Shown here: positions 2,940-23,086 of the stretch, one piece after another
How positions within the stretch are numbered: the stretch's first letter is position 1
How the letters are laid out: each line of letters begins with the position of its first letter
Assembly: GCA_049646625.1 (NCBI GenBank)
Contig: JBARWE010000219.1
Location: 4,361-68,360 of the forward strand
Direction: 5' to 3'
DNA from: Xanthobacteraceae bacterium
GTDB lineage: Bacteria; Pseudomonadota; Alphaproteobacteria; Rhizobiales; Xanthobacteraceae
Length of the DNA: 64,000 nt
The notes under the pieces: generated by a model
Told to the model about the DNA's origin: nothing
The model's database searches: none
The model's input: only the letters and a program-made list of their open reading frames with translations
Position numbers and translations under genes: made by a program

Positions 2940-2946
2940 GCGGAAA

Positions 2947-8489: not shown

Positions 8490-8514
8490 AGCCGTGGCGT
8501 TAGGGGGAGGGACT

Positions 8515-9720: not shown

Positions 9721-9752
9721 CGCACTACGTTGTGCTGTCCGCCCATCCGATC

Positions 9753-9786: not shown

Positions 9787-9818
9787 AACGGTAAGCGTGA
9801 AGGAACGGAGCCTCTATC

Positions 9819-10685
9819 TTGCTGATCCAGATCCTGAATGCCGTGCAGCTCAGCATGCTGATTTTTCTGCTTGCGGTCGGACTGACGTTCATCTTCGGCA
9901 TCATGCGGGTGATCAACCTTGCCCATGGCGCTCTCTATTCGCTTGGCGCCTACCTCGGCGTGGTCGTTGTCGATGCGACGGGTTCGTTCCTCCTTGCGCT
10001 GATCGTGGCGCCGCTAATGGTGGCCGTCGTCGGCGGCTTGCTGCAGATCTTTGCGATCGGGCCGCTGACGGTGCGCGGGCGCAACGAGCTTGAAATAGCC
10101 CTGCTGACCTTCGGCTTGATGTATATATCGATCGGCGTGCTGGAGACGCTGTTCGGCAAGGACTATCTGAGCATCGCGCTGCCAAGCGCGCTGGCGGGAA
10201 GCGTCGATATCCTTGGCGTCTCTTATCCGCTCTATCGTCTGTTCATCATCGCGGTCGGGTTGCTGACGGCACTCTGCATTTCGCTGTTCATCGAGCGCAC
10301 GATCGTTGGCGCTGCGGTGCGGGCCTGCGTCGACAACAAGCCAATGTCGGAATCGCTCGGTATGAATACTGACTGGGTTCTCGCCGGTGTTTTTGCCGTC
10401 GGATCGGGCCTGGCCGCGCTCGGCGGGGTCATCATGGCGCCCGTGTTGAGCGTCTTTCCGCACATGGGCAGTTCTATTCTCATTCTCTCGCTGATTGTCG
10501 TGGTGATCGGTGGCATGGGAAGCCTGAAAGGCTCGTTCTACGGCAGCCTGATCGTCGGGCTGACCGATACCTTGACCCAGTCCTATCTGCCTCAACTCAC
10601 GATGTTCGCCGTCTACATCATTCTGGTTCTGGTGATGCTGACGCGGCCACACGGCCTGTTCGGCCGCCACGCCCATTCGTTGTGA
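9819..10685 (+). CDS. Branched-chain amino acid ABC permease (LivH-like)
   Basis: 288-aa polytopic protein with a LivH-family pattern (INLAHGALYSLGAY ... GGMGSLKGSFYG). TTG start. Confidence 0.88.
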   Translation: MLIQILNAVQLSMLIFLLAVGLTFIFGIMRVINLAHGALYSLGAYLGVVVVDATGSFLLALIVAPLMVAVVGGLLQIFAIGPLTVRGRNELEIALLTFGLMYISIGVLETLFGKDYLSIALPSALAGSVDILGVSYPLYRLFIIAVGLLTALCISLFIERTIVGAAVRACVDNKPMSESLGMNTDWVLAGVFAVGSGLAALGGVIMAPVLSVFPHMGSSILILSLIVVVIGGMGSLKGSFYGSLIVGLTDTLTQSYLPQLTMFAVYIILVLVMLTRPHGLFGRHAHSL

Positions 10686-10687
10686 TC

Positions 10688-11677
10688 ATGACAACAAAGT
10701 CTATTGCCGTGCCCTACCGAGCCAATGTGGCGAGCGATGTTCGCACCCTCAGTATCCTTGCAATCGCCGTAGCCGCCGCGGCACTTGCCTGTGCTCCGTT
10801 CGTGTTGAACGACTATCAGGTGAACCTTGTCATCGAGGCGATGGTGTTCGGCATCTTTGCGATCGGTCTGAATTTTCTCGTCGGCTATACGGGGCTGGTG
10901 TCTCTCGGCCACGCCATGTTCCTCGGGATCGGCGGCTACGGGTTCGGCATTTTCACGGTGCTGCTCGACTGGCCGTGGTGGGCGGCGATCCCGGCAACGA
11001 TTTTGTGTTCCGCGGTGCTGTCGTTCCTGATAGGCATCGTCTGCATCCGTTCGTCGGGCGTTGGATTCTTCATCATGACGCTTGCGTTCTCGGAGCTGAT
11101 GTACGGGCTGGCCTTCAAGACCAAACTCGTCGGCGGCGACGACGGCATGAGCGGCATCTCCCGGCCCGACATCGGCTTTCTGGGGCTTGACATCTATAAT
11201 CCGGCCACCCTTTACGGGTTCATGTTGGTTGCCTTTGCGATTGTGCTGTTCGTCTCGTGGCGGATCATCCGCTCGCCGTTCGGCATGGTTCTGGTCGGCA
11301 TTCGCGAGAACGAAAGCCGGATGCGCGCGCTCGGCTACAGAACGCAATGGTACAAGATGGCCGTCTTTACCCTGTCCGGCATGATCTCGAGCTTCGGAGG
11401 GGTGATGCTCGTCATCAAGACAGGGTTTATGTCGCCCGAAACGCTGTCCTGGATGATGAGCGGCGAGGGACTGCTGATGGTGATCGTCGGGGGGGCCGGA
11501 ACATTTCTCGGTCCGGTTCTTGGTGCGGCAGCCTATGTTCTTCTTCGTGCCGGTCTGACGGGAATAACGGATCATTGGATTCTGTTTCTCGGCTCGTTCT
11601 TTGTGCTTACCGTCGTCTTCTTTCGAGGTGGCCTTATCGGGCTTATATCCGGCGCAATGGCATGGGTGCGGAGATGA
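10688..11677 (+). CDS. Branched-chain amino acid ABC permease (LivM-like)
   Basis: Contains GYTGLVSLGHAMFLGIGGY and GGAGTFLGPVLGA. The start could be GTG 10682 (overlapping the upstream stop) or ATG 10688. Confidence 0.86.
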   Translation: MTTKSIAVPYRANVASDVRTLSILAIAVAAAALACAPFVLNDYQVNLVIEAMVFGIFAIGLNFLVGYTGLVSLGHAMFLGIGGYGFGIFTVLLDWPWWAAIPATILCSAVLSFLIGIVCIRSSGVGFFIMTLAFSELMYGLAFKTKLVGGDDGMSGISRPDIGFLGLDIYNPATLYGFMLVAFAIVLFVSWRIIRSPFGMVLVGIRENESRMRALGYRTQWYKMAVFTLSGMISSFGGVMLVIKTGFMSPETLSWMMSGEGLLMVIVGGAGTFLGPVLGAAAYVLLRAGLTGITDHWILFLGSFFVLTVVFFRGGLIGLISGAMAWVRR

Positions 11678-12420
11678 TGGCCCTGAAGGTCGAATCGCTT
11701 TCCAAGCGATTTGGGGGGCTTCACGTTCTCGAGGACGTGGCCTTTTCCATTCCGGCTGGCGCACGGCATGCGTTGCTTGGGCCGAATGGTGCTGGCAAAA
11801 CAACATTGATCAATGTCGTGTCCGGTTGGTTGCGGCCGGATTCGGGGAAAATCGAGATCTATGGGGAGGATACGACCGGCCTTCCAGTGGAAAAACTGGT
11901 GAGGCGTGGGCTTGCTCGTTCGTTTCAGCGCAACAGCGCAATCGGCGATCTCTCGGTGCTCGAAAACCTCTGCCTTGCCTCTCACGCGATTATGCCTGGG
12001 CATGCAAACCTCTGGAGAGATCGGACGAGCTATGCCCAACCAATCGATCGGGCAACGGAAACTGCCGCGTGGATGGGTCTCGATAAGGTGCTGCATAGGT
12101 CCGCACGAGAGCTTTCGTACGGCGAAAAGCGTCAGCTCGAAGTCGCCCTCGCAATGTGCTCGAAACCAAGACTTCTGCTGCTGGACGAGCCGGCGGCCGG
12201 CACGTCGCCCGGAGAGCGTGGACGTCTCCGCGATCTGATCAAGTCGCTGCCGCCCGATATCAGCCTGGTGATGATCGAGCATGACATCGACCTGGTGTTC
12301 GACGTCTGCGATTCCGCAACGATCCTGAGCTACGGGCAAGTCATCGCCCAAGGCAGCAGAGAGGAAATCCGCAAAAGCACCGCGGTCCAGAATGCGTATC
12401 TCGGGGCTGCTCATGCTTAA
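11674..12420 (+). CDS. ABC ATP-binding protein (LivG-like)
   Basis: ATGA overlap with the livM-like stop. Walker A GPNGAGKTT, signature LSYGEKRQLE, Walker B LLLDEPAAG. Confidence 0.9.
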   Translation: MMALKVESLSKRFGGLHVLEDVAFSIPAGARHALLGPNGAGKTTLINVVSGWLRPDSGKIEIYGEDTTGLPVEKLVRRGLARSFQRNSAIGDLSVLENLCLASHAIMPGHANLWRDRTSYAQPIDRATETAAWMGLDKVLHRSARELSYGEKRQLEVALAMCSKPRLLLLDEPAAGTSPGERGRLRDLIKSLPPDISLVMIEHDIDLVFDVCDSATILSYGQVIAQGSREEIRKSTAVQNAYLGAAHA

Positions 12421-13114
12421 GGTCAGGGACATCCGCACATATTACGGCGAAAGCTGTATTCTTCAGGGCGTAACCCTTGATGTGAAAGAGGGAACGTGCG
12501 TCGCTCTGGTCGGCCGCAACGGCGCCGGGAAGACGACGACGCTTCGCAGCATCCTCGGCATGGTGCCGCCGCGGCAAGGCAGCATTCAGTACAAAGGCAA
12601 AGACATCACCCGTATGCGGACATGGCGCATCGCGCGCATGGGAATCGTGAATGTCCCGGAAGATCGCGGTATTTTTCCATCTCTGACCATCGAGGAGCAG
12701 CTGCGTCTCACGAAAGCGCTGGCGCGGAATCGTCCCAACTCGCGCTCAATCGATGAGGTCTATGCGATTTTTCCGCGCCTCGCCGAGCGACGCAAGCATC
12801 TGGGGACGCATCTTTCGGGCGGCGAGCAGCAGATGCTCGCGATCGGACGCGCGACAATCCTTGGGCCGGACCTTCTGGTCCTCGATGAGCCGAGTGAGGG
12901 GCTTGCGCCGCTCATCGTCGAACATGTCTTTATGGCACTCGACCGGATCCGCCGGGAGGGGACGACGATCCTGCTGGTCGAGCAGAACTATCATTGGGCC
13001 ATCCAGCTGGCCGATTTCGTTTATGTGCTGAGCCAGGGCGAGGTGAAATTTGAGGGCAGTCCCGCGCTGCTCGAATCCCACCCGGCCGTCAAGCAAGAGT
13101 TTTTGGGCATCTGA
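12413..13114 (+). CDS. ABC ATP-binding protein (LivF-like)
   Basis: Walker A GRNGAGKTT, signature LSGGEQQML, Walker B LVLDEPSEGL. The start overlaps the upstream gene by 8 nt. Confidence 0.9.
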   Translation: MLKVRDIRTYYGESCILQGVTLDVKEGTCVALVGRNGAGKTTTLRSILGMVPPRQGSIQYKGKDITRMRTWRIARMGIVNVPEDRGIFPSLTIEEQLRLTKALARNRPNSRSIDEVYAIFPRLAERRKHLGTHLSGGEQQMLAIGRATILGPDLLVLDEPSEGLAPLIVEHVFMALDRIRREGTTILLVEQNYHWAIQLADFVYVLSQGEVKFEGSPALLESHPAVKQEFLGI

Positions 13115-13189: not shown

Positions 13190-13984
13190 GTGACGTATGA
13201 TGACTACAAGACCATCGCGGTGACGCGTGCCGGCAGGATTTTGACCCTGACGATGAACCGTGCCGACAAGCTGAACGCGACCGATGCCTTGATGCATGAG
13301 GAACTGTCGCGGATTTTCTACGACGTCGGCCGGGACGGTGAAGCCGATGTCGTCATTCTGACTGGCGCGGGAAAAGCATTTTGCGCCGGCGGCGATACCA
13401 ACTGGATGCAGGATACCATCGACGATCCGTCGCTCTGGCGCAAAACCGTCACCGAAGCCAAGGGGATCATCTTTGGCCTGCTCGACCTTGAGAAGCCGGT
13501 TATCGCCAAGCTGAACGGCGCGGCGGTCGGGCTTGGGGCGACCATCGCGCTTTACTGCGATGTCATCTTTGCCTCCGACCGCGCCAAGATCGGAGACCCT
13601 CATGTCAGCGTCGGCTTTGTCGCCGGCGATGGCGGGTCGGCAATCTGGCCGCAGCTTGTCGGATACGCGCGCGCCAAGGAATTTTTGATGACGGGCGATA
13701 TCATCGGCGCGCAGACCGCCGCCGATATGGGGTTGATCAATCATTGCGTCCCGCATGAGGAGCTGGATCAGCGGGTGCAGGCTTTTGCCGAGAGGCTGGC
13801 GGGCGGTGCGATCCGCGCCATCCAGTGGACCAAGATGGCGATCAACGGGCCGTTGCGCCAAATCGTATCGACCAACCTCGAGATGTCGCTCGCTCTCGAG
13901 GGGTTGTCGAATGTCTCGGCCGATCACCAGGAGGGCGTGCGCGCATTCAACGAGAAGCGCGCACCCCGCTTCACCGGACAATAG
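13190..13984 (+). CDS. Enoyl-CoA hydratase/isomerase (crotonase) family protein
   Basis: 264 aa. Oxyanion-hole region GAGKAFCAGGD and a C-terminal EGVRAFNEKRAPRF. Confidence 0.9.
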   Translation: MTYDDYKTIAVTRAGRILTLTMNRADKLNATDALMHEELSRIFYDVGRDGEADVVILTGAGKAFCAGGDTNWMQDTIDDPSLWRKTVTEAKGIIFGLLDLEKPVIAKLNGAAVGLGATIALYCDVIFASDRAKIGDPHVSVGFVAGDGGSAIWPQLVGYARAKEFLMTGDIIGAQTAADMGLINHCVPHEELDQRVQAFAERLAGGAIRAIQWTKMAINGPLRQIVSTNLEMSLALEGLSNVSADHQEGVRAFNEKRAPRFTGQ

Positions 13985-13999
13985 TGCGTAGGAAAGCAT

Positions 14000-15568
14000 A
14001 TGTTCTTCAATCGGCAAACCATTGGGGGCGTGCTGCGCGCGACCGCCCGAGCGAGATCGGATCATGTCGCCGTCGTTCAGGGCGAGTTGATGCTGACTTA
14101 CCGGGAGCTGGACGAGGCCGTCGACAAGCTCGGCGCTCATCTCATCGCCGCCGGCATCCGCAAGGGCGATCGTGCGGCCTTCATGTTCTTGAACCAGTGG
14201 GAAATCCTGGTCGCCTACTATGCCATTGCGCGCATCGGGGCCGTGTGCGTTTCGCTGAACTACCGGCTGACGCCGGGTGAGATCGAGTACCAGCTCCGGA
14301 AGACCAATGCGCGCGTCGTTCTCTACGATGACAGCTTTGGTGAGCTGTTCGCGCGGCTGCCGGCGTCCCTGATCGAAAAGCTCATTTTCATTTCATCGGC
14401 CGAAGGGGGCGGCGATCGGCACATTCCGGTCAGCGGCAACTTTGTCGATATCCTGCGCAAAGGTTATGCCGGCCGGGTCGAGGTCGATGTCGAGTCGAGC
14501 GATGACAGCGGCATCTGGTTCACCTCCGGAACCACCGGAAGCCCGAAGGGGGCGATCGTTCGTCACGCTTCGTCGATTGCCTCGGCGGATATCACCGCTC
14601 TCGTCTGCAACTTCGGCGTGGAGACGCGCTTTCTGGCGACGGCGCCAATGTTTCATCGCGGTGCGATGGAGGATATGCACCTGGCGATCACGCTGGTCGG
14701 TGCCACCCACGTTCTTCTGCCGCGCTTCGAGCCGAAGCGGGCGCTCGAACTGATCGAATCCGAGAAAATCTCGCACGCATTCATCGTCCCGACGATGTCG
14801 CGCCTCATTTTGCAGCTTCCCGGCTGCGAAACGTATGACCTGACCTCGATGGAGCGATGGATTTCCGCCTCGGCGCCGTTCCCTGCTGAGCTGGCAACCG
14901 CGATCCAGGAGCGCCTGAGGCTGCGGGATGATGTCGTCATGAATGCCTACGGGATCACCGAGTCGCTGTTGAACGCTGCCTGTTATCCGCGGGAGATGCG
15001 TGCGCGACCCGGTTCGGTCGGCCGCGCGGTGCCGAAGATGCAGGTGCGGATCGTCGATGCGCAGCACACCTTTGTGGCCGATGGTGAGGTCGGCGAGATC
15101 GTGACGTCGGGGCCGACCACGTTTCGCACCTACCTCGACGACGAGGCGGCGTTTCGATCTGCGGTTTTTCAGGCTGACGATGCGGTCTGGTACAACACCG
15201 GCGACGTCGGCTATCGGGATGAGGATGGCTACATCTACATTGTCGACCGCAAGAAGGACATGATCATTTCCGGCGGCGAGAATATCTACTGTGTCGAGGT
15301 TGAAAGCGCGATTGCGCGCCACGCGGACGTATCCGAGGTCGCCGTTGTCGGGGCGCCTGACGAGTTGTGGGGCGAGCGGGTCGTCGCCTTCGTCGTGCCA
15401 AAACCCGGCGCCAGCCTCGATCAGGACACGGTCTTGTCGTTCTGCCAGGACCTTGCGGGATACAAGCGCCCGCGTGAGGTCAAAGTGATCGCGGCCTTTC
15501 CCCGGAATTCGTTCGGAAAGATTCAGAAGGCCGAGTTGCGCAAGCTGGTGGCGGAGCGGGCGCCTTAG
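14000..15568 (+). CDS. AMP-dependent acyl-CoA synthetase/ligase
   Basis: 522 aa. Motifs FTSGTTGSPKG, YGITE, TGDVGYRDEDGYIYIVDRKKD and NSFGKIQK. Confidence 0.9.
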   Translation: MFFNRQTIGGVLRATARARSDHVAVVQGELMLTYRELDEAVDKLGAHLIAAGIRKGDRAAFMFLNQWEILVAYYAIARIGAVCVSLNYRLTPGEIEYQLRKTNARVVLYDDSFGELFARLPASLIEKLIFISSAEGGGDRHIPVSGNFVDILRKGYAGRVEVDVESSDDSGIWFTSGTTGSPKGAIVRHASSIASADITALVCNFGVETRFLATAPMFHRGAMEDMHLAITLVGATHVLLPRFEPKRALELIESEKISHAFIVPTMSRLILQLPGCETYDLTSMERWISASAPFPAELATAIQERLRLRDDVVMNAYGITESLLNAACYPREMRARPGSVGRAVPKMQVRIVDAQHTFVADGEVGEIVTSGPTTFRTYLDDEAAFRSAVFQADDAVWYNTGDVGYRDEDGYIYIVDRKKDMIISGGENIYCVEVESAIARHADVSEVAVVGAPDELWGERVVAFVVPKPGASLDQDTVLSFCQDLAGYKRPREVKVIAAFPRNSFGKIQKAELRKLVAERAP

Positions 15569-15996
15569 CGTCGGATGGCGACCTTTCGCAGACGCTCGGC
15601 CAGTTCAGCGCTGATCGGTGCCGGGCGGCGCGCTGCCTTCGAGAAGTGCACCAGAACCGTTTCGGCGACGGCGGCGCACTCGCTCTGGCTGAAAAGACCT
15701 TGTGCTATCGTAAAGGAACTTGTGCCGGTGTGTAGGATGCCCGTGCCTATCCTGACTTGTCCCGGCGCGAACAGCTCCCTGAGCAAATTGACCGTTGTGC
15801 GCGCGACGACGGCCGCGGTGGTCAGCTTCTCGCCGATAATCCCAAGCTCGATGCACAATGTCAGCCGCGCCGTGTCGCAATAGGTCACATATGAGGCGGT
15901 GTTGATGTGTCCGAGCAGATCGGTATCGCCGAATCTCAACGTATCGTCGGTCCAGTGCGGATACGCATCGGGATGCTTCAGTCGTTCGTCGATCAT
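15565..15996 (-). CDS. Acyl-CoA thioesterase, 4HBT/YbgC-like hotdog fold
   Basis: 143 aa. The N-terminus (...LRFGDTDLLGHINTASYVTYCDTAR) matches the 4HBT pattern (D.D..GHV.N..Y). Confidence 0.78.
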   Translation of the reverse strand: MIDERLKHPDAYPHWTDDTLRFGDTDLLGHINTASYVTYCDTARLTLCIELGIIGEKLTTAAVVARTTVNLLRELFAPGQVRIGTGILHTGTSSFTIAQGLFSQSECAAVAETVLVHFSKAARRPAPISAELAERLRKVAIRR

Positions 15997-16110: not shown

Positions 16111-16497
16111 ATGGCGCTTCAGGTCGGAGCAACGAGCAGCGAGAGCTTTGCCGTGGGGCAGGAGCATACGGCGCTGGCCATGGGCAACGAGGGGGTTTCC
16201 GTTCTCGGCACGCCGGCATTGATCCTGTTCGCGGAGACGGTCTGTCATCGGATGCTTGTGCCGCATCTGGCGGACGGAGACGCATCTGTCGGAATAGCTG
16301 TCAACATTCGTCATCTCAAGGCGACCCCGGTCGGCATGCGGGTGCAGGTCAGCGCCACCCTGCGGGAGATCGCTGGCAGGCGTCATCTGTTCGAGGTGTC
16401 CGGGCAGGACGAGGAAGGCGCGATCCTTGCCGGCACTCATGAACGGGCCATTGTCGATCTGGCGCCGTTTCTGGCCAAGATCGAGGTGGCCAGGTAG
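16111..16497 (+). CDS. Hotdog-fold thioesterase (fluoroacetyl-CoA-thioesterase-like family)
   Basis: ATG 16111 lies 7 nt after GGAGGA. Pattern: GVSVLGTPALILFAETVCHRML ... SVGIAVNIRHLKATPVGMRV ... GRRHLFEV. Confidence 0.72.
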   Translation: MALQVGATSSESFAVGQEHTALAMGNEGVSVLGTPALILFAETVCHRMLVPHLADGDASVGIAVNIRHLKATPVGMRVQVSATLREIAGRRHLFEVSGQDEEGAILAGTHERAIVDLAPFLAKIEVAR

Positions 16498-16587: not shown

Positions 16588-17412
16588 CTACATGTAACGA
16601 ACGACGAAGGTGGCGACGCCGATGGGCTTGTCGCTGCCGACCGTATTCCAGGTGACGTCGTATGAGACGGACAGGCCGCGCTCGCGCGGCTCGACCCGCC
16701 CGACCTTGACCGTTTGCGTCAGCCTCGCTCCCTGCACGAGCGGGGCGAGCAGGCGGATGCGGTCGCTGCCCTGAAACAGCATGGTGTCGACGTTACGTAT
16801 CTCGACCAGATCGAAGAACAGTTTTGGAAACAGCGCCGCCGCCATCATGCCCGGCGCAATCGTCGTGCCGAAGGGCGAGGCCTTGCAGCGCTCCTCGTCC
16901 CAATGGATCCATTCGGTGTTCTCGGTCGAGCGGCAGAACTGGTCGATCCGGTCCTGGGTGATTTCGATCGGCCCGGCCGTGCCAAGCGTCGTTCCCTCAA
17001 GCGGGGCGAATCCGGACAGGCCGTCGATGACGATGCTTGCGGTCATGGTCTTGCGTTCCTTTGAAAGTTGCCCGCCGGAGCCGGAGGCTGTGAACTGGTC
17101 CGCTATCGGTGCCAAGCCGTTCTGCGAGTTTTGGGCGACATTGCACCTGCCGCGACCGCAAAGACGGTCAAGGGACGTATCGTCGTCGGTGTCTGAGGTT
17201 CTGGCTCTTTCGGCCACGGTCAACCGCTGGAAGTAATCCATTGCGGTTGGCGGCAGCTTGCCGGACCACTTCACCCAGTTGAAGATGGTCCGGCACGTCC
17301 TGCACTCGAACATCACTTCCGAGATGCTGCTTCCGAATAGTGACAGAAGCTCCACGTTGCCGCCGTGACATTCGGGGCAGCGGACATCCTTGAAGTCGTC
17401 GTCGCGCATCAA
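16588..17412 (-). CDS. Fusion ORF: PaaD-type C-terminal zinc ribbon, a linker of about 70 aa, and a MaoC-like (R)-hydratase domain
   Basis: Residues 10-48 read VRCPECHGGNVELLSLFGSSISEVMFECRTCRTIFNWVKW. This matches the E. coli PaaD C-terminus as I recall it (VRCPRC...LISEFGSTACKALYRCDSCREPFDYFK). Residues 123-274 are a MaoC hotdog domain. No stop codon separates the two parts. An internal ATG at 17046 with AAGGAA upstream could also start a stand-alone MaoC protein. Confidence 0.7.
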   Translation of the reverse strand: MMRDDDFKDVRCPECHGGNVELLSLFGSSISEVMFECRTCRTIFNWVKWSGKLPPTAMDYFQRLTVAERARTSDTDDDTSLDRLCGRGRCNVAQNSQNGLAPIADQFTASGSGGQLSKERKTMTASIVIDGLSGFAPLEGTTLGTAGPIEITQDRIDQFCRSTENTEWIHWDEERCKASPFGTTIAPGMMAAALFPKLFFDLVEIRNVDTMLFQGSDRIRLLAPLVQGARLTQTVKVGRVEPRERGLSVSYDVTWNTVGSDKPIGVATFVVRYM

Positions 17413-18188
17413 TTGTAGGCCGCGGCCGGGTCTTTCAGTTGAACGATGCCGAACAGACGGTCCGGGATATTGCCGGCGCGGCGCCGTTCGATCGTCCAGT
17501 CGGCTGCCGGCGGGACCGGATCGGGCAGCTTTGCGTCGATTTGCGACGCCTGAAGCGCGGCCGAAACCTCATTGAGGAATGCCTCCCGCAGCTTCGTGGC
17601 CGGCAGCGCGCGCAGCCCCGCATCGTACAGGACGTCGTTCTGGCTGCTGTCGCCGAACCACGCCGCCGCCTGCGGCAGCCGCTGCGCCACCGCCTGGCCG
17701 AACTCCACATTCTCAGTGCCGGCGAAAATGCCGCGCCAGCCTTCGCAATACTTCAGGTGGAAGTAGGATTCCTGGCCGATTTTATGGACCAGACCGGACA
17801 ATGCGCGATCCGGATGCGACAGGAAGCCGGAGGCGAAAGTCCACATCGCCTGCTCGGCGAGATAGACCGATGCAACAAAGTCCTCCCAGGACTCCGGCGG
17901 GCTGTCGAGAAGGTTCATCGAGTTGATGCCGGTCGCATCGCGACGCCGCTCCAGATCGGTGTACGGGATGCCGAAATTGACCAGATACAGATACAGCCCG
18001 CGCGTATGGCCGAACGTTGCAGTCGCCATGCCGAGGATGGCGGCGAAGTCGGGCAGGGATCGGCCGTTGTGCACGCACATCGTATACCAGTTGGCCAGCA
18101 CAAGCTTGCTGTCGGCCAGCGCCAGCACGTCGGACTTGAGGCGATCGCGAGCCTCGGGGGCGAGCGTTGCCAGATCGAAACGGTTCAT
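17409..18188 (-). CDS. paaC: PaaC-like (PaaI) structural subunit of a phenylacetyl-CoA-epoxidase-type oxygenase
   Basis: 259 aa from ATG 18188. Ferritin-like helical protein (LADSKLVLANWYTMCV ... GHTRGLYLYL). It sits directly after paaB. Confidence 0.75.
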   Translation of the reverse strand: MNRFDLATLAPEARDRLKSDVLALADSKLVLANWYTMCVHNGRSLPDFAAILGMATATFGHTRGLYLYLVNFGIPYTDLERRRDATGINSMNLLDSPPESWEDFVASVYLAEQAMWTFASGFLSHPDRALSGLVHKIGQESYFHLKYCEGWRGIFAGTENVEFGQAVAQRLPQAAAWFGDSSQNDVLYDAGLRALPATKLREAFLNEVSAALQASQIDAKLPDPVPPAADWTIERRRAGNIPDRLFGIVQLKDPAAAYN

Positions 18189-18192
18189 GATC

Positions 18193-18450
18193 CTAAGCCT
18201 CTTTGATTTTGCCGCGGGCACCTTTGTCGGTCACCGAGATGACCGCATCGGTAGGAACCACGCACATTTCGCGCCAACGCTGCTGGTCGTAGACGTACCA
18301 GGCGCGAACCTGAGCCAACTCGTCGTTGGGCGCCTCGATACTGCCGACGTGAGCCAGTACGTCGTTTGAGTCGATTCGCGCGAACACTTCGTAGAACTTG
18401 GTGCTGTTGCCGCCGAGTTCCGCGCGATTGATCTTCTTCGGCTTGATCAT
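18193..18450 (-). CDS. paaB: PaaB-like small subunit
   Basis: 85 aa. FYEVFARIDSNDVLAHVGSIEAPNDELA..A...Y follows the PaaB pattern (YEVF.R......H.GS..A). ATGA overlap with the upstream gene. Confidence 0.78.
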   Translation of the reverse strand: MIKPKKINRAELGGNSTKFYEVFARIDSNDVLAHVGSIEAPNDELAQVRAWYVYDQQRWREMCVVPTDAVISVTDKGARGKIKEA

Positions 18451-18758
18451 ATCTGGATTCCGTTTGTTCGCATCAACGTCTTGGTCTCGTCGTCCAGCAG
18501 GTCGCGCGACCACGGCAGGAAAAAGCCGTTTTCGATAACGACGCTGCGAACGCCGGGAAGATCGAGCAACGCGCGTTCGATATCGCCGTGGAGCATACTG
18601 ACGCCGGGACAGCCGAGGCAGGGAATGCACAGTTGCACATGCACCACGCCATCCTCGATGGAGATGTCCCGGAGCATGCCCATGCGCCGGATGCTGACCG
18701 GAACATGGGGATCGTTGACCTTCTCCAGGGCCTCGCGGATATCGTCGACGGTTACCAC
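18447..18758 (-). CDS. DUF59/MIP18-family protein, equivalent to the N-terminal domain of PaaD
   Basis: 103 aa from a GTG that overlaps the paaA stop (GTGGTAA). Sequence: VTVDDIREALEKVNDPHVPVSIRRMGMLRDISIEDGVVHVQLCIPCLGCPG. Confidence 0.72.
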   Translation of the reverse strand: MVTVDDIREALEKVNDPHVPVSIRRMGMLRDISIEDGVVHVQLCIPCLGCPGVSMLHGDIERALLDLPGVRSVVIENGFFLPWSRDLLDDETKTLMRTNGIQI

Positions 18759-19735
18759 AGAGCGCTGCCCCAGTGCTCTTCCTGAAGCCGCTTGAACCCC
18801 GAAACCTTTGTGGGACCGCCCTTGCGCCACTGCTCGAACTGCTCTTCCCAGGTCGTGGTCTTGTAGTCCCACTTGCCGGTTTCCTCGTTGAGAAGGATCG
18901 GCATTTCGTAGTCCAGGACGTAGCAGCCCTTGTCCGCATCGAAGTGCGCCGGAACACGAATGCCGATCGACTCGCAGAACGGCACAACCTCGTTGAGCCA
19001 GCGCTGCCGCAGCTCGTCGTTGCTCTGGCCGCGGATCTTATAGGACAGCTGGTCGACCCGCTTCTTCATGGTGTCGGGAGTACCGAACCACATCACGGCG
19101 TTCGGAAATACGAAGTCGATCGCCTCCTGCACGCGCTTGCGCGTTTCCGGCGACAGGTTCCAGTAGAACTTGGTCCACTTCTCGCCGTGAGCGACGTGAA
19201 ACTGCTCCTCGAAATTGACCTTGCGGAGTGAGCGCGCGTAGGGGCCGTAGGAACACGATTCCTCGAGGTCGCGGGTGGTGGTGTAGCCGGCGCGATCGCC
19301 CAGCAGCATGTACACCACGCACTGGATGTAATCGGGAATATCGTGCTGCGTGAGGTAGAACGTCTTGAACTCGGTCGGATCGCGCTCGAAGATCAGCTCG
19401 TGGGTGTTGTAGCCGAAATCCTCGAGCATCCGATACATCACCTGAGCGTGGCCTAGCTCGTCCTGCATGGCAGATGCGACCGCCATTTTTGCTTCCAGCG
19501 TCGGCGCCTTCACAAGTGGCGTGTAGTACATGGTGATGGTCGAGACCTCGAGGTCCGCGGCGATCAACATGGTCTGCACCAGCACGTTGCGATAGCGCGG
19601 CGTCATCTCGCGGTCGTCTTCGAGCTTGCGGCCGCTTTTGACCCATATCTGGAGCGCTGTCTCGCGATCCTCGTCTTTCAACCCGGATACCGGAGGCATC
19701 CTGTTTTCGTGGTTGGCGACGGCTGCATCAGGCAT
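18752..19735 (-). CDS. paaA: PaaA-like catalytic diiron subunit (1,2-phenylacetyl-CoA epoxidase subunit A family)
   Basis: 327 aa. Carboxylate/His ligand motifs QDELGH and FEEQFH, plus the PaaA-typical SYGPYARS and NDELRQR. Confidence 0.85.
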   Translation of the reverse strand: MPDAAVANHENRMPPVSGLKDEDRETALQIWVKSGRKLEDDREMTPRYRNVLVQTMLIAADLEVSTITMYYTPLVKAPTLEAKMAVASAMQDELGHAQVMYRMLEDFGYNTHELIFERDPTEFKTFYLTQHDIPDYIQCVVYMLLGDRAGYTTTRDLEESCSYGPYARSLRKVNFEEQFHVAHGEKWTKFYWNLSPETRKRVQEAIDFVFPNAVMWFGTPDTMKKRVDQLSYKIRGQSNDELRQRWLNEVVPFCESIGIRVPAHFDADKGCYVLDYEMPILLNEETGKWDYKTTTWEEQFEQWRKGGPTKVSGFKRLQEEHWGSALW

Positions 19736-19902
19736 TCTTTTTCTCCATGGGTGCTACCAAAATCGTGGCCCCGTCCCTCTGAACGGTCCTGATGTCAGGC
19801 CCTCGGAAAGGGGCGGGGCGTCTCCTGCACCGCTTGCAAACATACCGACTACTTAGTAATGTTATCAGACGGAGATTTTGTCAAGTTTGGATGTTCACAG
19901 GG

Positions 19903-21405
19903 ATGCGCAAGCTTCAGCTTTTCATTGGTGGTGAGTTCGTCGAGGCGGAAAACGGCGAGACTTATTTTTCGATAAATCCGGCCAACGGCGAGGCGATCGC
20001 CGAATGCGCCTGGGCGGGCGCGGGCGACGCGGAGCGGGCGATTGCCGCCGCCCGGACGGCGTTCGACAGGGGGCCGTGGCGCGACTTTTCGGCCTCGGAC
20101 CGCAAGAGCGTGCTGCTGAAGCTCGCCGCCCTGTTGAAGGACCGCCAGAACGACGTCGCGCTGATGGAGGTGCAGGACGCCGGCGCGCTGATCGGCAAGG
20201 CGACGACCGATGTCGCGCTTTGCGTCAAGCAGCTTCGCTATTTTGCCGAGATGGCGGACAAGTTCACCGGCGAGCCGGTGCCGATCGAGGGCCTGTCCCG
20301 GCCGGGACGCTCGCACTACTATACGGTGAGGGAGCCGTTCGGCGTTTGCGGCGCCATCATCCCCTGGAATTTTCCATTGACGATGGCGGTGTGGAAGATC
20401 GCCTCCGCGCTGGCGACGGGCAATGCGATCGTTCTCAAATGTGCGGCGGAAACGCCTTTAAGCGCCATGGAGCTGGCGCGATTGTGCAACGAGGCGGGCG
20501 TGCCGCCGGGCGTGGTCAATGTGATCACCGGTGAGGTGGAGGCCGGGCAGGCGCTGGTCAAAAGCTCCTCTGTCGACAAAATCTCCTTTACCGGCTCGAC
20601 CGAAGTCGGCCGCGAGATCATGCGCGAGGCGGCCGCGACGTTGAAGAACGTGACGCTCGAATGCGGAGGAAAATCGGCCAACATCGTCATGGACGACGCC
20701 GACCTTGAGACCGCCGTGGATGGCTCGCTGTATGCGACCTTCTTCCATAGCGGGCAGGTCTGCGAGTCGGGCACCCGTCTTCTGTTGAGCAAGAAGCTTC
20801 ATGATTCGTTCGTCGAGCGAATGATTGCGCGTGTCGAAGCCATGCGGATCGGAGACCCCATGGATCCGGAGACGACGGTGGGTCCGGTCGTCTCCGAACG
20901 GCAGATGGATCGCGTCCTCGACTATATCGAAGTTGGCAAGCGCGAGGGCGCCAGGCTGAGCGTCGGCGGTTCGCGTGCGACCGAGGGGCCTCTTGCCAGG
21001 GGGTTTTTCGTCAAGCCGACGATCTTTACCGACGTCAGCAACGACATGCGGATTGCCCGTGAGGAAATTTTTGGCCCGGTTCTATGCGTTCTTCGCTATG
21101 GCGACGTTGATGAGGCGGTCGGGATCGCGAACGATAGCATTTTTGGCCTCGCCGCCGGTGTCTGGAGCAAAGATATCCCGCGGGCGACGGACGTTGCGCG
21201 AAAACTCCAGGCGGGCTGGGTCTGGCTCAATGAATGGCATGTGCTATCGGAGCGCGCTCCGTTCGGCGGCTACAAGCAGTCCGGGATCGGCCGCGAACTG
21301 GGTGAAGAAGGCTTGAATGCGTATACACAGCTCAAGACGCTCTATCGGGACGACTCGACGGGCCGTCAGGCGAAGCCGTGGTACGACATTCTCGTTCGTC
21401 AGTAG
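19903..21405 (+). CDS. NAD(P)-dependent aldehyde dehydrogenase
   Basis: Catalytic region LECGGKSANIV and FHSGQVCESGTR. ATG 19903 is chosen because it begins the typical LFIGGEFV N-terminus. An alternative ATG is at 19891. Confidence 0.9.
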   Translation: MRKLQLFIGGEFVEAENGETYFSINPANGEAIAECAWAGAGDAERAIAAARTAFDRGPWRDFSASDRKSVLLKLAALLKDRQNDVALMEVQDAGALIGKATTDVALCVKQLRYFAEMADKFTGEPVPIEGLSRPGRSHYYTVREPFGVCGAIIPWNFPLTMAVWKIASALATGNAIVLKCAAETPLSAMELARLCNEAGVPPGVVNVITGEVEAGQALVKSSSVDKISFTGSTEVGREIMREAAATLKNVTLECGGKSANIVMDDADLETAVDGSLYATFFHSGQVCESGTRLLLSKKLHDSFVERMIARVEAMRIGDPMDPETTVGPVVSERQMDRVLDYIEVGKREGARLSVGGSRATEGPLARGFFVKPTIFTDVSNDMRIAREEIFGPVLCVLRYGDVDEAVGIANDSIFGLAAGVWSKDIPRATDVARKLQAGWVWLNEWHVLSERAPFGGYKQSGIGRELGEEGLNAYTQLKTLYRDDSTGRQAKPWYDILVRQ

Positions 21406-21447: not shown

Positions 21448-22260
21448 ATGAAGGACGGCGAACGCGCGCCTGTTGTATTTCAGGTGCAGGACGGGGTCGC
21501 AACGTTGACGCTTAACGACCCGGACAACCGCAATCCGATTTCGGCGCCGGACATGGTTGACGCCATTATTTCCGCGATCGAGAGCGTCAATGTCCGCGAC
21601 GACATTTCGGTGCTGGTGCTAACCGGCAACGGCTCGGCTTTCTCGGCGGGTGGCGACATCAAGGCAATGCGGGAGCGCACCGGCATTTCCGGCGGCTCGC
21701 CGATGGAGGTCGACCGCAACTATCGCCGGACAATCCAGCGCATCCCCCTGTGTCTTTACAATGTTGAGGTTCCGACCGTCGCCGCGGTTAATGGCCCCGC
21801 CATCGGGGCGGGCTGTGACCTGGCGTTGATGTGCGACATCCGGATCGCGTCGACGACGGCGCGCTTCGGCGAAACGTTCGTCAATCTCGGTATCATTCCC
21901 GGCGACGGCGGCGCGTGGTTTTTGCCCCGGCGGATCGGATACGAGCGCGCGGCGGAGATGATCTTCACCGGGCGTATTGTCGACGCGCAGGAAGCGCACG
22001 AGATCGGCATGGTGCTTAAGGTGGTTGATCCCGCCAGCCTGATGCAGGAGAGCTACGAACTGGCGCGGAAAATTGCCGCCAAGCCGCCGGCCGCCATTCG
22101 CATGGCCAAGCGGCTCCTGCGCCAGAGCGCCTCGGCGCAGTTGCGCGATTTTCTCGACACCTGTGCCGCCTATCAGGCGCTGGCGCATCATATGGACGAC
22201 CACATGGAAGCGATCGAGGCGTTCTTCGAGAAGCGGCCCGCAACGTTCCGGGGAGCCTAG
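21448..22260 (+). CDS. Enoyl-CoA hydratase/isomerase family protein
   Basis: 270 aa. GNGSAFSAGGD, and a C-terminal MEAIEAFFEKRPATF. Confidence 0.9.
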   Translation: MKDGERAPVVFQVQDGVATLTLNDPDNRNPISAPDMVDAIISAIESVNVRDDISVLVLTGNGSAFSAGGDIKAMRERTGISGGSPMEVDRNYRRTIQRIPLCLYNVEVPTVAAVNGPAIGAGCDLALMCDIRIASTTARFGETFVNLGIIPGDGGAWFLPRRIGYERAAEMIFTGRIVDAQEAHEIGMVLKVVDPASLMQESYELARKIAAKPPAAIRMAKRLLRQSASAQLRDFLDTCAAYQALAHHMDDHMEAIEAFFEKRPATFRGA

Positions 22261-22327
22261 TCGGCGAAGCTCGATGACGAGTCCCGGGCACGCGGCGCGA
22301 CCGGGCACGGATCAAGGAAGGAACGCG

Positions 22328-23086
22328 ATGGCGCTGATCGAGGAAAGATCGCAAGACGTTGTTGTTTTGACGATCGACCAGCCGGAGCGGCGCAACGCGC
22401 TGTCCTCTGCCGTCAAGCAGCGCCTTGCCGAGGTGATGGATCGTCTGGAGACCGACACCACGGTGCGCGCGATTGTCATCACGGGGACCGGCGGAAATTT
22501 CAGTTCCGGCGGCGATCTGGCCGAGATGGGCACGCCGACACTGGCCGAGGCGCGCGACCGGTTCATCGAGTCGCACCGGCTCGTGCGCGCCATCGTGCGC
22601 TCCAGCAAGGTTGTCATTGCCGCGGTCGAAGGCTGGGCGGTCGGCGCGGGCATGTCGCTGGCGCTCGTTTGCGATTCCGTGGTCGCCGCTGAGGATGCGA
22701 GGTTTTCCGCCGGCTTCGGCAAGGTCGGTCTGATCGGCGACCTCGGCATTGTCTATTCGCTTGCGCGGCGGGTAGGGGAGGCGCGGGCAAAGCAGATCTT
22801 GCTCTATGCGCAGACGATCGGGGTTGAGGAAGCGAAGCGGATCGGGCTGATCGATGACGTCGCCGGCAAGGGGAATGCGCTTGCCGGGGCCATGGAGATG
22901 GCGCACCGGGTGAGGTCGGTGGCGCCGCTCTCGATCAGCGCGACCAAGGCCATGCTGGTCGGACAACTGGATATCTTTCTGGACCGGGAACGGGAGATAC
23001 AAGCCTCGCTTCTGACCTCTCAGGATTTTCTTGAGGGAAAACTGGCTTTCCGGGAAAAGCGTGCGCCGAACTTCCGCAATCAGTAG
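22328..23086 (+). CDS. Enoyl-CoA hydratase/isomerase family protein
   Basis: ATG 22328 follows AAGGAAGGA. GTGGNFSSGGD, and a C-terminal FLEGKLAFREKRAPNF. Confidence 0.88.
   Translation: MALIEERSQDVVVLTIDQPERRNALSSAVKQRLAEVMDRLETDTTVRAIVITGTGGNFSSGGDLAEMGTPTLAEARDRFIESHRLVRAIVRSSKVVIAAVEGWAVGAGMSLALVCDSVVAAEDARFSAGFGKVGLIGDLGIVYSLARRVGEARAKQILLYAQTIGVEEAKRIGLIDDVAGKGNALAGAMEMAHRVRSVAPLSISATKAMLVGQLDIFLDREREIQASLLTSQDFLEGKLAFREKRAPNFRNQ

Follow-up and report, generated by a model that had tools for sequence, protein, structure and literature searches.

Our preferred reading, to which we assign a probability of about 55%, is that a five-gene operon in the 64-kb stretch of DNA analyzed here (the window) specifies the oxygenase core of a ferritin-like diiron monooxygenase of the PaaABC type, acting on a CoA thioester other, or of broader range, than phenylacetyl-CoA. 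A preliminary description of the locus, made from sequence alone, had proposed a PaaABC-type operon on the minus strand at 16588-19735. We found all five cistrons there, encoding PaaA-like, DUF59, PaaB-like, PaaC-like and zinc-ribbon proteins, and profile-HMM searches matched each product to the expected family (PF05138, PF01883, PF06243 at its cut-off, PF05138 and PF23451). None of the five ORFs is disrupted, GC3 is high in each, and their starts and stops overlap or sit 4 nt apart, that is, they are translationally coupled (Table 1).

The operon is bounded 5' by a divergent aldehyde dehydrogenase gene and 3' by a convergent thioesterase gene, which excludes a co-transcribed paaE just outside it, a possibility that the preliminary description had raised. 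Its statement that the 64 kb contain no reductase-type ORF also held: none of the large ORFs throughout the window matched a FAD_binding_6, NAD_binding_1 or Fer2 reductase, and a phmmer search with E. coli PaaE against all window stop-to-stop ORFs of at least 35 aa gave no match. The intergenic region between the operon and the aldehyde dehydrogenase gene contains a small palindrome (ACTACT-T-AGTAAT); a search of this region for a consensus sigma-70 promoter found none.

Table 1. Features of the operon and its surroundings (positions in the window)
Feature	Position	Strand	Evidence
TetR regulator	5824-6501	-	Pfam
Second acyl-CoA ligase	6828-8489		Pfam
Liv-type ABC transporter	8437-13114		Pfam
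Crotonase (13190-13984) and FadD-type acyl-CoA ligase (14000-15568)	13190-15568	+	Pfam
4HBT_2 acyl-CoA thioesterase	15565-15996	-	PF13279, 65.8 bits
FlK-family hot-dog thioesterase	16111-16497	+	PF22636, 104 bits; convergent with operon 3' end
MaoC-like hot-dog domain, aa ~121-273	16588-17049	-	PF01575, aa 139-243, 42.6 bits
Low-complexity linker, about aa 49-120	17050-17265	-	GC3 0.69
PaaD-type Cys4 zinc-ribbon domain, aa 1-48	17266-17409	-	PF23451 (Zn_ribbon_PaaD), 41.9 bits
PaaC-like non-catalytic partner subunit, 259 aa	17409-18188	-	PF05138, 60.6 bits
PaaB-like bridging subunit, 85 aa	18193-18450	-	PF06243, 27.0 bits, exactly at cut-off
Stand-alone DUF59 protein (PaaD N-terminal half), 103 aa	18447-18758	-	PF01883, 67.4 bits
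PaaA-like catalytic diiron subunit, 327 aa	18752-19735	-	PF05138, 169.7 bits
Intergenic region, operon / aldehyde dehydrogenase gene	19736-19902	.	Divergent; read directly
Aldehyde dehydrogenase, 500 aa	19903-21405	+	PF00171, 576 bits; divergent from operon
Two crotonase-family genes (21448-22260 and 22328-23086)	21448-23086	+	PF00378

The catalytic subunit and its relation to PaaA

The metal-ligand motifs QDELGH and FEEQFH are both present in the PaaA-like subunit, as previously described, and the six diiron ligands of E. coli PaaA align with E63, E93, H96, D147, E177 and H180, with none lost. This ligand set (EEHDEH) is kept in 80/80 full-length A-subunit homologues. An AlphaFold model (pLDDT 89.9) predicts a PaaA-type fold, its top PDB matches being PaaA chains (TM 0.78-0.86), followed by PaaC and then BoxB. 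Identity of the subunit to E. coli PaaA is 29%, and its score on TIGR02156 (PaaA) is 130 bits against the NCBI cut-off of 280; where E. coli PaaA has E49 and K68, the residues changed in PDB entry 4II4, the subunit has Y70 and A89. In reciprocal BLAST, window-type A subunits and canonical PaaA fall apart as two groups. In a neighbour-joining tree with 200 bootstraps, the window-type A clade was recovered as monophyletic in 183 and canonical PaaA in 192, and the same analysis gave the C subunit its own sister clade. This placement indicates that the catalytic subunit is sister to canonical PaaA and does not nest inside bona fide PaaA.

These results bear on whether the operon could be the organism's phenylacetyl-CoA 1,2-epoxidase, with its genes reordered, PaaD divided in two and paaE elsewhere in the genome. 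PaaA and PaaC are indeed the nearest characterized and solved relatives, and the retention of every diiron ligand fits such a function. However, the low identity of the A subunit, A, B and C scores far under the equivalog cut-offs, and the separate, well-supported clade all argue against it, and we regard this explanation as improbable.

The partner subunits and a split PaaD

The PaaB-like protein scores 23.7 bits on the PaaB equivalog model (cut-off 85). Its assignment is supported by an HMM of the PaaB-like clade, which matches E. coli PaaB (22.8 bits, E 9.6e-5), and its gene lies between those for DUF59 and C/zinc ribbon in 79/80 surveyed loci. For the PaaC-like subunit, which scores 30.8 bits on the PaaC equivalog model (cut-off 133), the top PDB match is E. 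coli PaaC (E 1.2e-4). In this subunit the six ligand positions hold K, T, H, E, S and H and so lack three carboxylates, a feature shared with E. coli PaaC (CLQDAH). We infer that, like its counterpart in E. coli PaaABC, the PaaB-like protein would bridge a pair formed by the catalytic PaaA-like and ligand-poor PaaC-like subunits.

E. coli PaaD carries DUF59 (aa 14-74) and a zinc ribbon (aa 123-163) in a single protein, in line with what the preliminary description had stated of canonical PaaD. These fused modules appear here as two separate proteins: the DUF59 protein is 27% identical to PaaD aa 12-110, and the Cys4 zinc ribbon is 37.5% identical to aa 124-163. The stop of the PaaA-like gene and the start of the DUF59 gene overlap by 7 nt, those of the PaaC-like and zinc-ribbon genes by 1 nt, and DUF59 is thereby coupled translationally to the catalytic subunit and the zinc ribbon to PaaC. 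The DUF59 protein, thought to serve as a maturation or metal-handling factor, has a clade-specific C-x2-C-P motif (77/77 clade members), of which E. coli PaaD has the second Cys only. The four zinc-ribbon cysteines are kept in 73/73 clade members.

A zinc ribbon fused to a MaoC-like domain

The fifth ORF (16588-17409, 273 aa) had been described as beginning with a PaaD-type Cys4 zinc ribbon. It does (PF23451 match over aa 8-48, E 7.8e-11), but its continuation through a ~65-aa linker into a MaoC-type hot-dog domain had been missed. The zinc-ribbon proteins of other clade members stop shortly past a KLPP motif, and the two domains are found joined in the window's lineage only. An in-frame ATG at 17045, with AGGA upstream, means that a free MaoC protein could also be made. 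The MaoC-like motif N-x-E-W-I-H-W-D-E-E-R-C aligns its Asn with D561 and its His with H566 of E. coli PaaZ. Because Asn replaces the catalytic Asp in this subfamily, the MaoC partner may not be a hydratase at all. The Asn-type subfamily recurs beside the oxygenase, accounting for 25/38 MaoC neighbours.

We considered whether misassembly could have produced the fusion, or the entire operon, or whether these genes are decaying into pseudogenes. Codon bias is weaker in the linker (GC3 0.69) than in the domains on either side of it (0.84 and 0.86), the linker resembles read-through spacer, and the fusion is absent among the 120 matches listed of 145 in a zinc-ribbon profile search, all of which are 58-86 aa. 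Yet the same 273-aa fusion occurs in independent assemblies from different sequencing runs (L002, L003 and L004) and in a second metagenome-assembled genome at 98% identity (L007), the five ORFs are undamaged, and the catalytic residues are invariant in 80 genomes. This explanation is thus largely refuted, and we give it very little weight.

Conservation of the split order and electron supply

We surveyed 80 loci from species-representative genomes for the arrangement reported for the window, in which paaB and paaC separate the two halves of PaaD. The order A-DUF59-B-C-ZnR was found in 51/80 loci and A-DUF59-B-ZnR-C in 21/80; five further loci are broken by contig ends, yet are consistent with a split order. 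In relatives of 34-38% identity, DUF59 likewise directly follows A. One protein (P0030) is a fusion of A and DUF59. The clade comprises roughly 200 species-level genomes, and a literature search found no paper on it. The suggestion of a distinct architectural variant stands in that the clade is separate and uncharacterized in the searchable literature, but the window's genome is not alone in its split order, which is the norm throughout the clade.

A PaaE-like gene lies within 10 kb in 1/80 loci, about 9 kb off. In 19 gamma-clade loci, a 104-aa Fer2 ([2Fe-2S]) ferredoxin gene directly follows the operon, and in 16 marine alphaproteobacterial loci a nitroreductase-family flavoprotein gene follows the zinc ribbon. 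Electrons would be supplied in trans and not by a dedicated PaaE, most likely by a small [2Fe-2S] ferredoxin and a housekeeping reductase. Against this route, a ferredoxin beside the operon is confined to one sub-clade, and no ferredoxin reductase was found near it. Other ferritin-like diiron enzymes, such as bacterial multicomponent monooxygenases (toluene 4-monooxygenase, for instance) and cyanobacterial aldehyde-deformylating oxygenase, receive electrons from a separate small ferredoxin, which in the latter is not encoded with the enzyme. Their electron mode is the one proposed here, although they have other subunit sets and non-CoA-ester substrates and resemble the window A subunit in a distantly related fold only (TMq 0.4-0.54).

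The lack of PaaE at 79/80 loci also counts against a phenylacetyl-CoA epoxidase. Moreover, the clade includes members in Bradyrhizobium and Pseudomonas, genera that commonly carry canonical paaABCDE. On the other side, a 2026 survey found that PaaD and PaaE homologues can occur outside paa gene context (PMC13186573), which would accommodate a paaE elsewhere. Beyond the 64 kb, this genome may carry a paaE, or canonical paa genes, which would tell against our preferred reading.

Gene neighbourhoods and the candidate substrate

The neighbours in the window suggest a paa-like CoA-dependent catabolic module for some acid. The aldehyde dehydrogenase falls under every NCBIfam equivalog cut-off, and the best sub-threshold matches of the crotonases include PaaG, PaaF and alternative oxepin-CoA hydrolase (183.6 bits against 300). 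Since no neighbour reaches an equivalog cut-off, nothing pins the substrate. Aldehyde dehydrogenase and MaoC are the domain pair of PaaZ, which we counted for a paa-like pathway. E. coli PaaZ combines an aldehyde dehydrogenase with a MaoC-type oxepin-CoA hydrolase in one protein; in the window the two lie on separate proteins flanking the oxygenase, with MaoC fused to the zinc ribbon instead. The MaoC-like domain keeps the hydratase-motif His, and its similarity to PaaZ is marginal (E 0.0011 on TIGR02278; BLAST E 0.12). With crotonases and thioesterases mirroring PaaG/F and PaaI/Y, this pair again favours a phenylacetyl-CoA epoxidase; against it, the window contains no PaaK-type ligase, its FadD-type ligase at 14000-15568 not being of that type, and no PaaJ/PaaH-type thiolase or dehydrogenase, absences that also weigh against our preferred reading.

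Across the 80 loci, neighbours include ligases of the FadD-type family (55), TetR regulators (51; in most other loci the regulator gene immediately precedes that of the PaaA-like subunit), crotonases (41), MaoC proteins (30), FlK-family thioesterases (17), UbiD (9) and aldehyde dehydrogenases (5). UbiD neighbours are nearest to the hydroxyarylic-acid decarboxylase VdcC, and the best functionally named match of a ThDP-dependent neighbour is benzoylformate decarboxylase. In Bradyrhizobium and Allopusillimonas loci, a thiolase and a FadB-like gene lie beside the operon, and gamma-clade neighbours encode an acyl-CoA dehydrogenase, a family III CoA-transferase and a MaoC protein. The generic beta-oxidation neighbours in these three groups suit an aliphatic or alicyclic substrate equally well, which counts against our preferred reading.

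The enzyme could accordingly hydroxylate or desaturate a non-aromatic acyl-CoA, derived from a branched, alicyclic or otherwise beta-oxidation-blocked acid, since an added oxygen or double bond would let the neighbouring beta-oxidation-type enzymes proceed. The recurrent neighbours are generic (beta-oxidation genes, SDRs and FadD-type ligases), the acyl-CoA dehydrogenase has cyclohexane-1-carbonyl-CoA and glutaryl-CoA dehydrogenases among its best named matches, each of which falls below threshold, and PaaAC crystals with 3-hydroxybutanoyl-CoA and acetyl-CoA (PDB titles) show that aliphatic CoA esters bind in the pocket of this family. However, PaaA and BoxB, both characterized CoA-ester members of the fold, epoxidize aromatic rings; UbiD/UbiX and benzoylformate-decarboxylase-like neighbours at about 10 loci point to aromatic acids; and aldehyde dehydrogenase with MaoC beside the operon (the window, L007, L021, L024 and L063) fits hydrolytic ring opening. 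We therefore hold a non-aromatic substrate to be a tentative alternative, with perhaps a one-in-four claim.

Under the preferred reading of a PaaABC-type monooxygenase, an acid would be taken up by the Liv-type ABC transporter of this 'hybrid' CoA-dependent module and activated by the FadD-type ligases. Oxygenation would follow, and the reaction that we favour is epoxidation of the ring in an aromatic acyl-CoA or another unsaturated cyclic one. The oxygenated product would pass to crotonases and the MaoC-like protein for processing, the divergent aldehyde dehydrogenase would oxidize the resulting aldehyde, and the two thioesterases may rescue CoA.

Comparison with known systems

The closest known system is the 1,2-phenylacetyl-CoA epoxidase PaaABCDE of E. 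coli, Klebsiella and Pseudomonas (PDB 3PVR, 3PW8 and 4IIT). Both share the fold and six A-subunit ligands, a ligand-poor C, a small PaaB and DUF59 and Cys4 zinc-ribbon modules, and both are set among CoA ligase, crotonase, hot-dog and aldehyde dehydrogenase genes. The window proteins differ in identity (29% for A, 22% for C and 27-37% for the D halves, below every equivalog cut-off), in Y70 and A89 replacing E49 and K68, in the extra DUF59 Cys, in the split PaaD with DUF59 moved between A and B, in the lack of PaaE and in a FadD-type rather than PaaK ligase.

BoxAB, the benzoyl-CoA 2,3-epoxidase (PDB 3PM5 and 3PER), is likewise a diiron ferritin-like oxygenase of an aromatic CoA thioester, and its pathway also continues through a crotonase-family ring-cleaving enzyme and an aldehyde dehydrogenase. 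BoxB, however, consists of one 470-aa subunit served by a dedicated reductase, BoxA, lacks PaaB, PaaC and DUF59 partners, and resembles the window A subunit in distant fold only (TMq about 0.55, 15-16% identity, E about 1e-4). Sulfolobus SSO1313 (PDB 4MUD) is another divergent PF05138 protein, PaaA/PaaC-like and outside the canonical bacterial PaaA clade, but at 235 aa it matches only part of the window A protein. In haloarchaeal paa systems, the PaaD model NF041868 is DUF59-only (127 positions, versus 146 for bacterial TIGR02159); the window DUF59 scores best there, at 58 bits against a cut-off of 180.

Together, these results place the split-PaaD clade as a widespread and seemingly unstudied branch that is sister to the phenylacetyl-CoA ring-epoxidase of bacteria.

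A five-gene operon encodes a PaaABC-like oxygenase with a divided PaaD

The preliminary description had placed five minus-strand cistrons at 16588-19735, and profile-HMM searches assigned Pfam domains to all of them (see table). The same five genes were present in independent gene calls from six other assemblies of the same organism. Adjoining cistrons overlap by 7, 4 and 1 nt or, at one junction, are 4 nt apart, which indicates translational coupling of all five. Because a divergent aldehyde dehydrogenase gene bounds the operon at its 5' side and a convergent thioesterase gene at its 3' side, no further gene can be co-transcribed with it, a result that excludes a co-transcribed paaE just outside. 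A search for a TetR operator shared by the window's two intergenic regions gave nothing convincing, a promoter and terminator scan was uninformative, and the window gave no Rfam or tRNA hits.

In the canonical system of E. coli K-12, PaaD is a single protein with a DUF59 domain (aa 14-74) and a zinc ribbon (aa 123-163), encoded after paaC, and PaaE is a reductase with FAD_binding_6, NAD_binding_1 and Fer2 domains. PaaD is not one protein in the window: as had been proposed, DUF59 and the ribbon are encoded by separate genes, with paaB and paaC between them.

The window as a whole has a G+C content of about 62%. Positions 1-4000, which encode a sugar-type ABC transporter, are at 0.50-0.53 compared with ~0.60-0.68 elsewhere in the window. 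Two CoxLMS-type molybdenum hydroxylase gene sets, with CoxG, XdhC, a CoxE-like VWA protein and an AAA ATPase as accessories, have no obvious link to the oxygenase operon.

Features of the window and of related loci. Positions without a locus prefix are window coordinates; L numbers denote related loci, mostly from species-representative genomes.
Feature	Location	Strand	Remarks
PaaA-like	18752-19735	-	327 aa; PF05138 169.7 bits (cut-off 28.5)
DUF59	18447-18758	-	103 aa; PF01883 67 bits
PaaB-like	18193-18450	-	85 aa; PF06243 27.0 bits, exactly the cut-off
PaaC-like	17409-18188	-	259 aa; PF05138 60.6 bits (cut-off 28.5)
Zinc ribbon-MaoC ORF	16588-17409	-	273 aa; aa 8-48 PF23451 (E 7.8e-11), aa 139-243 PF01575 (E 5.6e-11)
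Aldehyde dehydrogenase	19903-21405		divergent, upstream of operon
FlK-type thioesterase	16111-16497		convergent, downstream of operon
CoxLMS-type gene sets	27083-30857, 31859-32326, 35989-42787	+, +, -	two sets
MHYT-LytTR regulator	42900-44204
Sugar-type ABC transporter	within 1-4000		SBP_bac_1, permease, MalK-like ATPase
Asn-variant MaoC-like proteins	16588-17049; L063:7058-7510; L064; L024; all gamma-clade loci (e.g. L068:9403-9852)
Gamma-clade Fer2 ferredoxin	L065-L086, e.g. L068:12619-12930	-	directly past PaaC-like gene
Nitroreductase-type flavoprotein	L015, L025, L028-L030, L036-L038, L043, L045, L046, L048, L050, L058, L059; e.g. L030:12691-13449
UbiD beside oxygenase	L009, L018, L021, L022, L024, L026, L027, L060, L061
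Minimal A-B-C loci	L010-L012		without DUF59 or ribbon

The A subunit retains the diiron site and branches apart from PaaA

Both metal-ligand motifs that had been claimed for the PaaA-like (A) subunit, QDELGH and FEEQFH, were there, and proper alignment retained all six diiron ligands. Residues E63, E93, H96, D147, E177 and H180 of the window protein align with E42, E72, H75, D126, E155 and H158 of E. coli PaaA (phmmer, 3PVR). They are invariant in a 20-sequence alignment and read EEHDEH in 80/80 full-length A sequences, which comprise 78 loci plus the window and E. coli PaaA; the sole two exceptions are truncated sequences. By alignment, the subunit carries the E, ExxH, D, ExxH pattern of the four-helix-bundle diiron site in PF05138 catalytic subunits. 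At the same positions the PaaC-like (C) subunit has K, T, H, E, S and H, and E. coli PaaC has C, L, Q, D, A and H; the window protein likewise lacks three carboxylates, and its closest PDB match is PaaC.

An AlphaFold model of the A subunit (pLDDT 89.9) found its best PDB fold matches in the PaaA chains 3PW8, 3PWQ, 4II4 and 4IIT (TM 0.78-0.86, rmsd 2.4 Å, 24-25% identity), followed by SSO1313, PaaC and, distantly, BoxB (TMq ~0.55, 15-16% identity, rmsd ~8 Å). No solved structure closer than PaaA was found in the PDB copy searched, and no BoxA-like gene was seen. PaaA E49 and K68, the residues of the 4II4 mutant entry, align with window Y70 and A89.

The A subunit shared 29% identity (91 bits) with its E. 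coli counterpart and the C subunit 22%; DUF59 was 27% identical to the N-terminal half of E. coli PaaD, and the ribbon 37.5% identical to the C-terminal half. Scores against the NCBI equivalog models were 130 for PaaA (TIGR02156, cut-off 280), 30.8 for PaaC (cut-off 133), 23.7 for PaaB (TIGR02157, cut-off 85) and 50 for PaaD (cut-off 108). The B subunit is likely homologous to PaaB; an HMM of the clade, that is, of the window-type relatives, matches E. coli PaaB at E 9.6e-5.

When the A subunit was compared with 1.84 billion representatives of 50%-identity clusters, its close clade appeared as one representative (610 bits), followed by about 12 full-length representatives at 31-42% identity (241-150 bits), and canonical PaaA ranked below these at ~85-123 bits. 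Clade representatives scored 154-234 bits to the window protein versus 60-107 to E. coli PaaA in reciprocal BLAST, and the reverse held for canonical representatives. In a simple neighbour-joining tree, 183/200 bootstraps supported monophyly of the window-type A clade and 192/200 that of canonical PaaA. Nesting of the PaaA-like protein inside bona fide PaaA is contradicted by both analyses, which keep the clades separate. The C subunit also fell into its own clade, sister to canonical PaaC (neighbour-joining), and this parallel separation means that the A/C pair has diverged as a unit. Judged by its sequence, the window A subunit is a member of the PF05138 superfamily in a clade separate from PaaA proper.

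Long PaaA-family proteins in the representative library were considered as a clue to the reductase and turned out instead to be PaaX-PaaA, PaaA-PaaB or nucleotidyltransferase fusions. Within the canonical PaaA clade, the protein records P0158, P0176 (379 aa) and P0189 (648 aa) include PaaA-PaaB fusions and one PaaX-PaaA fusion, which may be a mis-called gene.

Separate DUF59 and zinc-ribbon genes are the norm among relatives

Scanning species representatives, 185,579 genomes with one for each species, recovered 218 stretches that encode a relative, and gene order was determined in the best 80 of these 218 by an HMM survey of stop-to-stop ORFs; all locus counts out of 80 refer to this set. The clade occurs in roughly 200 species-level genomes. 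Its carriers include Bradyrhizobium, Azospirillum, Allopusillimonas, Imbroritus and Pseudomonas, as well as Amycolatopsis, Nocardioides, Pseudonocardia, a Mycobacterium, Sulfobacillus and many marine alpha- and gammaproteobacterial MAGs. Complete carrier genomes include those of Bradyrhizobium genosp. P BDV5111 (NZ_CP188195) and Imbroritus primus (NZ_OZ201293) as well as closed alpha- and gammaproteobacterial MAG chromosomes, and cultured carriers include Bradyrhizobium, Azospirillum sp. ST 5-10, Allopusillimonas ginsengisoli and Amycolatopsis alkalitolerans.

The window's order, A-DUF59-B-C-ZnR (ZnR, zinc ribbon), proved to be the clade norm, with 51 of the 80 loci. Another 21, namely a gammaproteobacterial clade at 42-44% identity (the gamma-clade) and two others, have A-DUF59-B-ZnR-C; five are cut by contig ends but consistent in order, and three are minimal. 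DUF59 and the ribbon are encoded separately in 72/80 loci. DUF59 also follows A directly in distant relatives at 34-38% identity, and one relative at 31% identity has the order A-B-C-DUF59. The exact split order is common in the clade, but neither it nor the clade or a split PaaD was found described in the full-text literature and the reviews and surveys of the paa pathway, subscription-only literature aside. The three minimal loci, whose A subunits are 69-70% identical to the window's and which adjoin TRAP-type transporter genes, indicate that some lineages either do without DUF59 and the ribbon or supply both in trans.

A C-x2-C-P motif is present in 77/77 clade DUF59 proteins (the window's and those of L007-L086), of which E. 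coli PaaD has the second Cys only; it may be a metal- or cluster-binding site. The four Cys of the ribbon are kept in 73/73 clade members. A ribbon profile search returned 145 proteins, and the best 120 of these 145 are all stand-alone proteins of 58-86 aa named 'hypothetical' or 'PaaD-like zinc ribbon domain-containing', with no informative domain fusion among them.

One metagenomic protein of 422 aa (P0030), the only member of its kind and encoded on a 2-kb contig, has a PaaA-like domain fused in frame to DUF59. This fusion could be a Rosetta-stone hint that the catalytic subunit is what DUF59 acts on; it could also result from a sequencing error. On a 7-kb contig binned as the archaeon Nitrosopumilus sp. 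(L064, CAXQNK010000063.1), a TetR-A-DUF59-B-ZnR-C cluster of bacterial appearance occurs together with MaoC and acyl-CoA dehydrogenase genes; the contig is possibly a binning contaminant.

The ribbon is fused to a variant MaoC domain in the window lineage

The ribbon-MaoC fusion was found in the window, L002-L004 and L007. Since the best 120 of 145 ribbon matches are otherwise stand-alone, it appears confined to the window lineage, and its recurrence across independent assemblies rules out an assembly artefact. The linker has a GC3 of 0.69, versus 0.84 and 0.86 in the flanking domains, and looks like read-through of a former spacer. An internal ATG with AGGA could yield free MaoC from the fusion ORF.

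Hydratase-2 enzymes have a catalytic Asp-x4-His pair. The window MaoC domain keeps the His, and the Asp is replaced by Asn (N-T-E-W-I-H). This variant, at the position of PaaZ D561, recurs in 25/38 of the clade's MaoC neighbours; the motif of this subfamily is N-x-E-W-[IV]-H-W-D-E-E-R-C, with a conserved Glu two residues after the Asn position. The Asn-variant partner may be an enzyme of another kind, and could even be a subunit with no catalytic role.

Candidate electron donors differ from PaaE

Pfam scans of large ORFs in the 64-kb window revealed no PaaE-type reductase, and neither E. coli PaaE (phmmer) nor a clade ferredoxin HMM matched any stop-to-stop ORF of at least 35 aa in the window. 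These searches bear out the earlier claim that the 64 kb hold no ferredoxin-NADPH-reductase-type ORF. Across the 80 loci, a PaaE-like gene lies within 10 kb only at L061, ~9 kb off with other genes between. The CoxLMS-type sets and a DAO-type flavoprotein in the window were considered and are not PaaE-type partners.

A 104-aa Fer2 ferredoxin, whose sole NCBIfam match is the ISC-system 2Fe-2S ferredoxin fdx_isc, lies convergent after C in 19 gamma-clade loci. There it is part of a module of acyl-CoA dehydrogenase, family III CoA-transferase and MaoC genes, then A, DUF59, B, ZnR and C, then the ferredoxin, then a ligase and CoA_binding_2. A ferredoxin reductase was sought around one such locus and none was found. 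The ribbon gene of 16 marine alphaproteobacterial loci is followed directly, in the same direction, by a gene for a 253-aa nitroreductase-family flavoprotein; as a candidate redox partner of a diiron oxygenase, this protein would be unusual. Other recurrent neighbours considered as reductases belong to other families: in marine alphaproteobacteria, the upstream genes for a CCA-adding enzyme, a NUDIX protein and DUF1285, and in three actinobacteria a gene for an F420/luciferase-like protein. We infer that the clade oxygenase would receive its electrons in trans, from a small ferredoxin together with a shared reductase. No gene for either lies in the window.

Gene neighbourhoods suggest an aromatic or cyclic unsaturated acyl-CoA substrate

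The genes most often found near the operon encode FadD-type ligases (55/80 loci), TetR regulators, mostly directly upstream of A (51/80), and crotonases (41/80). MaoC (30/80), acyl-CoA dehydrogenase and family III CoA-transferase (22/80 each), FlK thioesterase (17/80), UbiD, in some cases with UbiX (9/80), and aldehyde dehydrogenase (5/80) follow. The window's own set comprises TetR, two ligases, a Liv-type ABC transporter, three crotonases, an aldehyde dehydrogenase, the MaoC domain and two thioesterases. In scans aimed at naming the substrate, no neighbour reached an NCBIfam equivalog threshold. The best named matches of the crotonases include PaaG and alternative oxepin-CoA hydrolase, both sub-threshold. 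Both window ligases are FadD-type proteins of ~520-550 aa with no phenylacetate-CoA ligase model among the best 25 NCBIfam matches of either, and the PaaK ligase of paa clusters was not found in the window.

The UbiD neighbours are nearest to hydroxyarylic-acid decarboxylases, and a ThDP-dependent neighbour, whose best functionally named match is benzoylformate decarboxylase, also occurs at L009, L021 and L027; both hint at aromatic-acid substrates. In a paa-like order, the substrate would be activated and oxygenated, the product isomerised and hydrolytically opened, and the aldehyde oxidised, with thioesterases for proofreading. The aldehyde dehydrogenase and MaoC domains that make up E. coli PaaZ also flank the window operon, with Asn in place of the catalytic D561. 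Because of this paa-like gene logic, the PaaZ domain pair, the crotonase matches and the UbiD and ThDP neighbours, our preferred candidate substrate is an acyl-CoA that is aromatic or at least cyclic and unsaturated. An aliphatic or alicyclic acyl-CoA is nonetheless a serious rival, since the MaoC partner belongs to the Asn subfamily, all neighbours fall below equivalog thresholds and many loci have generic beta-oxidation genes only.

Discussion

To our knowledge, PaaABCE and BoxAB are the only CoA-ester ring-attacking diiron oxygenases behind known aerobic 'hybrid' aromatic-acid pathways. The clade system appears homologous to PaaABC(D)E component by component and would work alike, but the window departs from PaaABCDE proper in equivalog scores, phylogenetic placement, the single PaaD, the adjacent PaaE and the PaaK ligase. 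We tentatively propose, with a probability of roughly 0.3, that the clade represents a third CoA-ester-dependent diiron oxygenase system beside Paa and Box, one that has gone unrecognised until now. It would have its own substrate, and DUF59, the zinc ribbon and the Asn-variant MaoC would be integral, separable subunits. Electrons would enter by another route, through a free 2Fe-2S ferredoxin, a nitroreductase-type flavoprotein, or the stand-alone Cys4 ribbon as a rubredoxin-like iron carrier with the C-x2-C DUF59. With the reductase missing, how clade enzymes are reduced becomes a question in itself.

PaaD is essential in vivo and dispensable in vitro, and its role has long been unexplained (PMC4498308, PMC9493321). 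The natural separation of its halves offers concrete hypotheses on which partner each half serves: DUF59 is tightly coupled to the catalytic subunit, and the ribbon is coupled to PaaC and fused to a hot-dog protein. If our proposal is true, natural splits and fusions (A-DUF59, ZnR-MaoC) would show what PaaD contacts and does.

Public annotations name clade genes PaaA or PaaC of phenylacetate degradation, a mis-annotation; surveys of paa potential built on these names are probably inflated. An unmapped CoA-dependent oxygenase pathway is probable in about 200 species, and a third widespread clade, if true, would mean that soil and marine bacteria have a catabolic route yet to be mapped.
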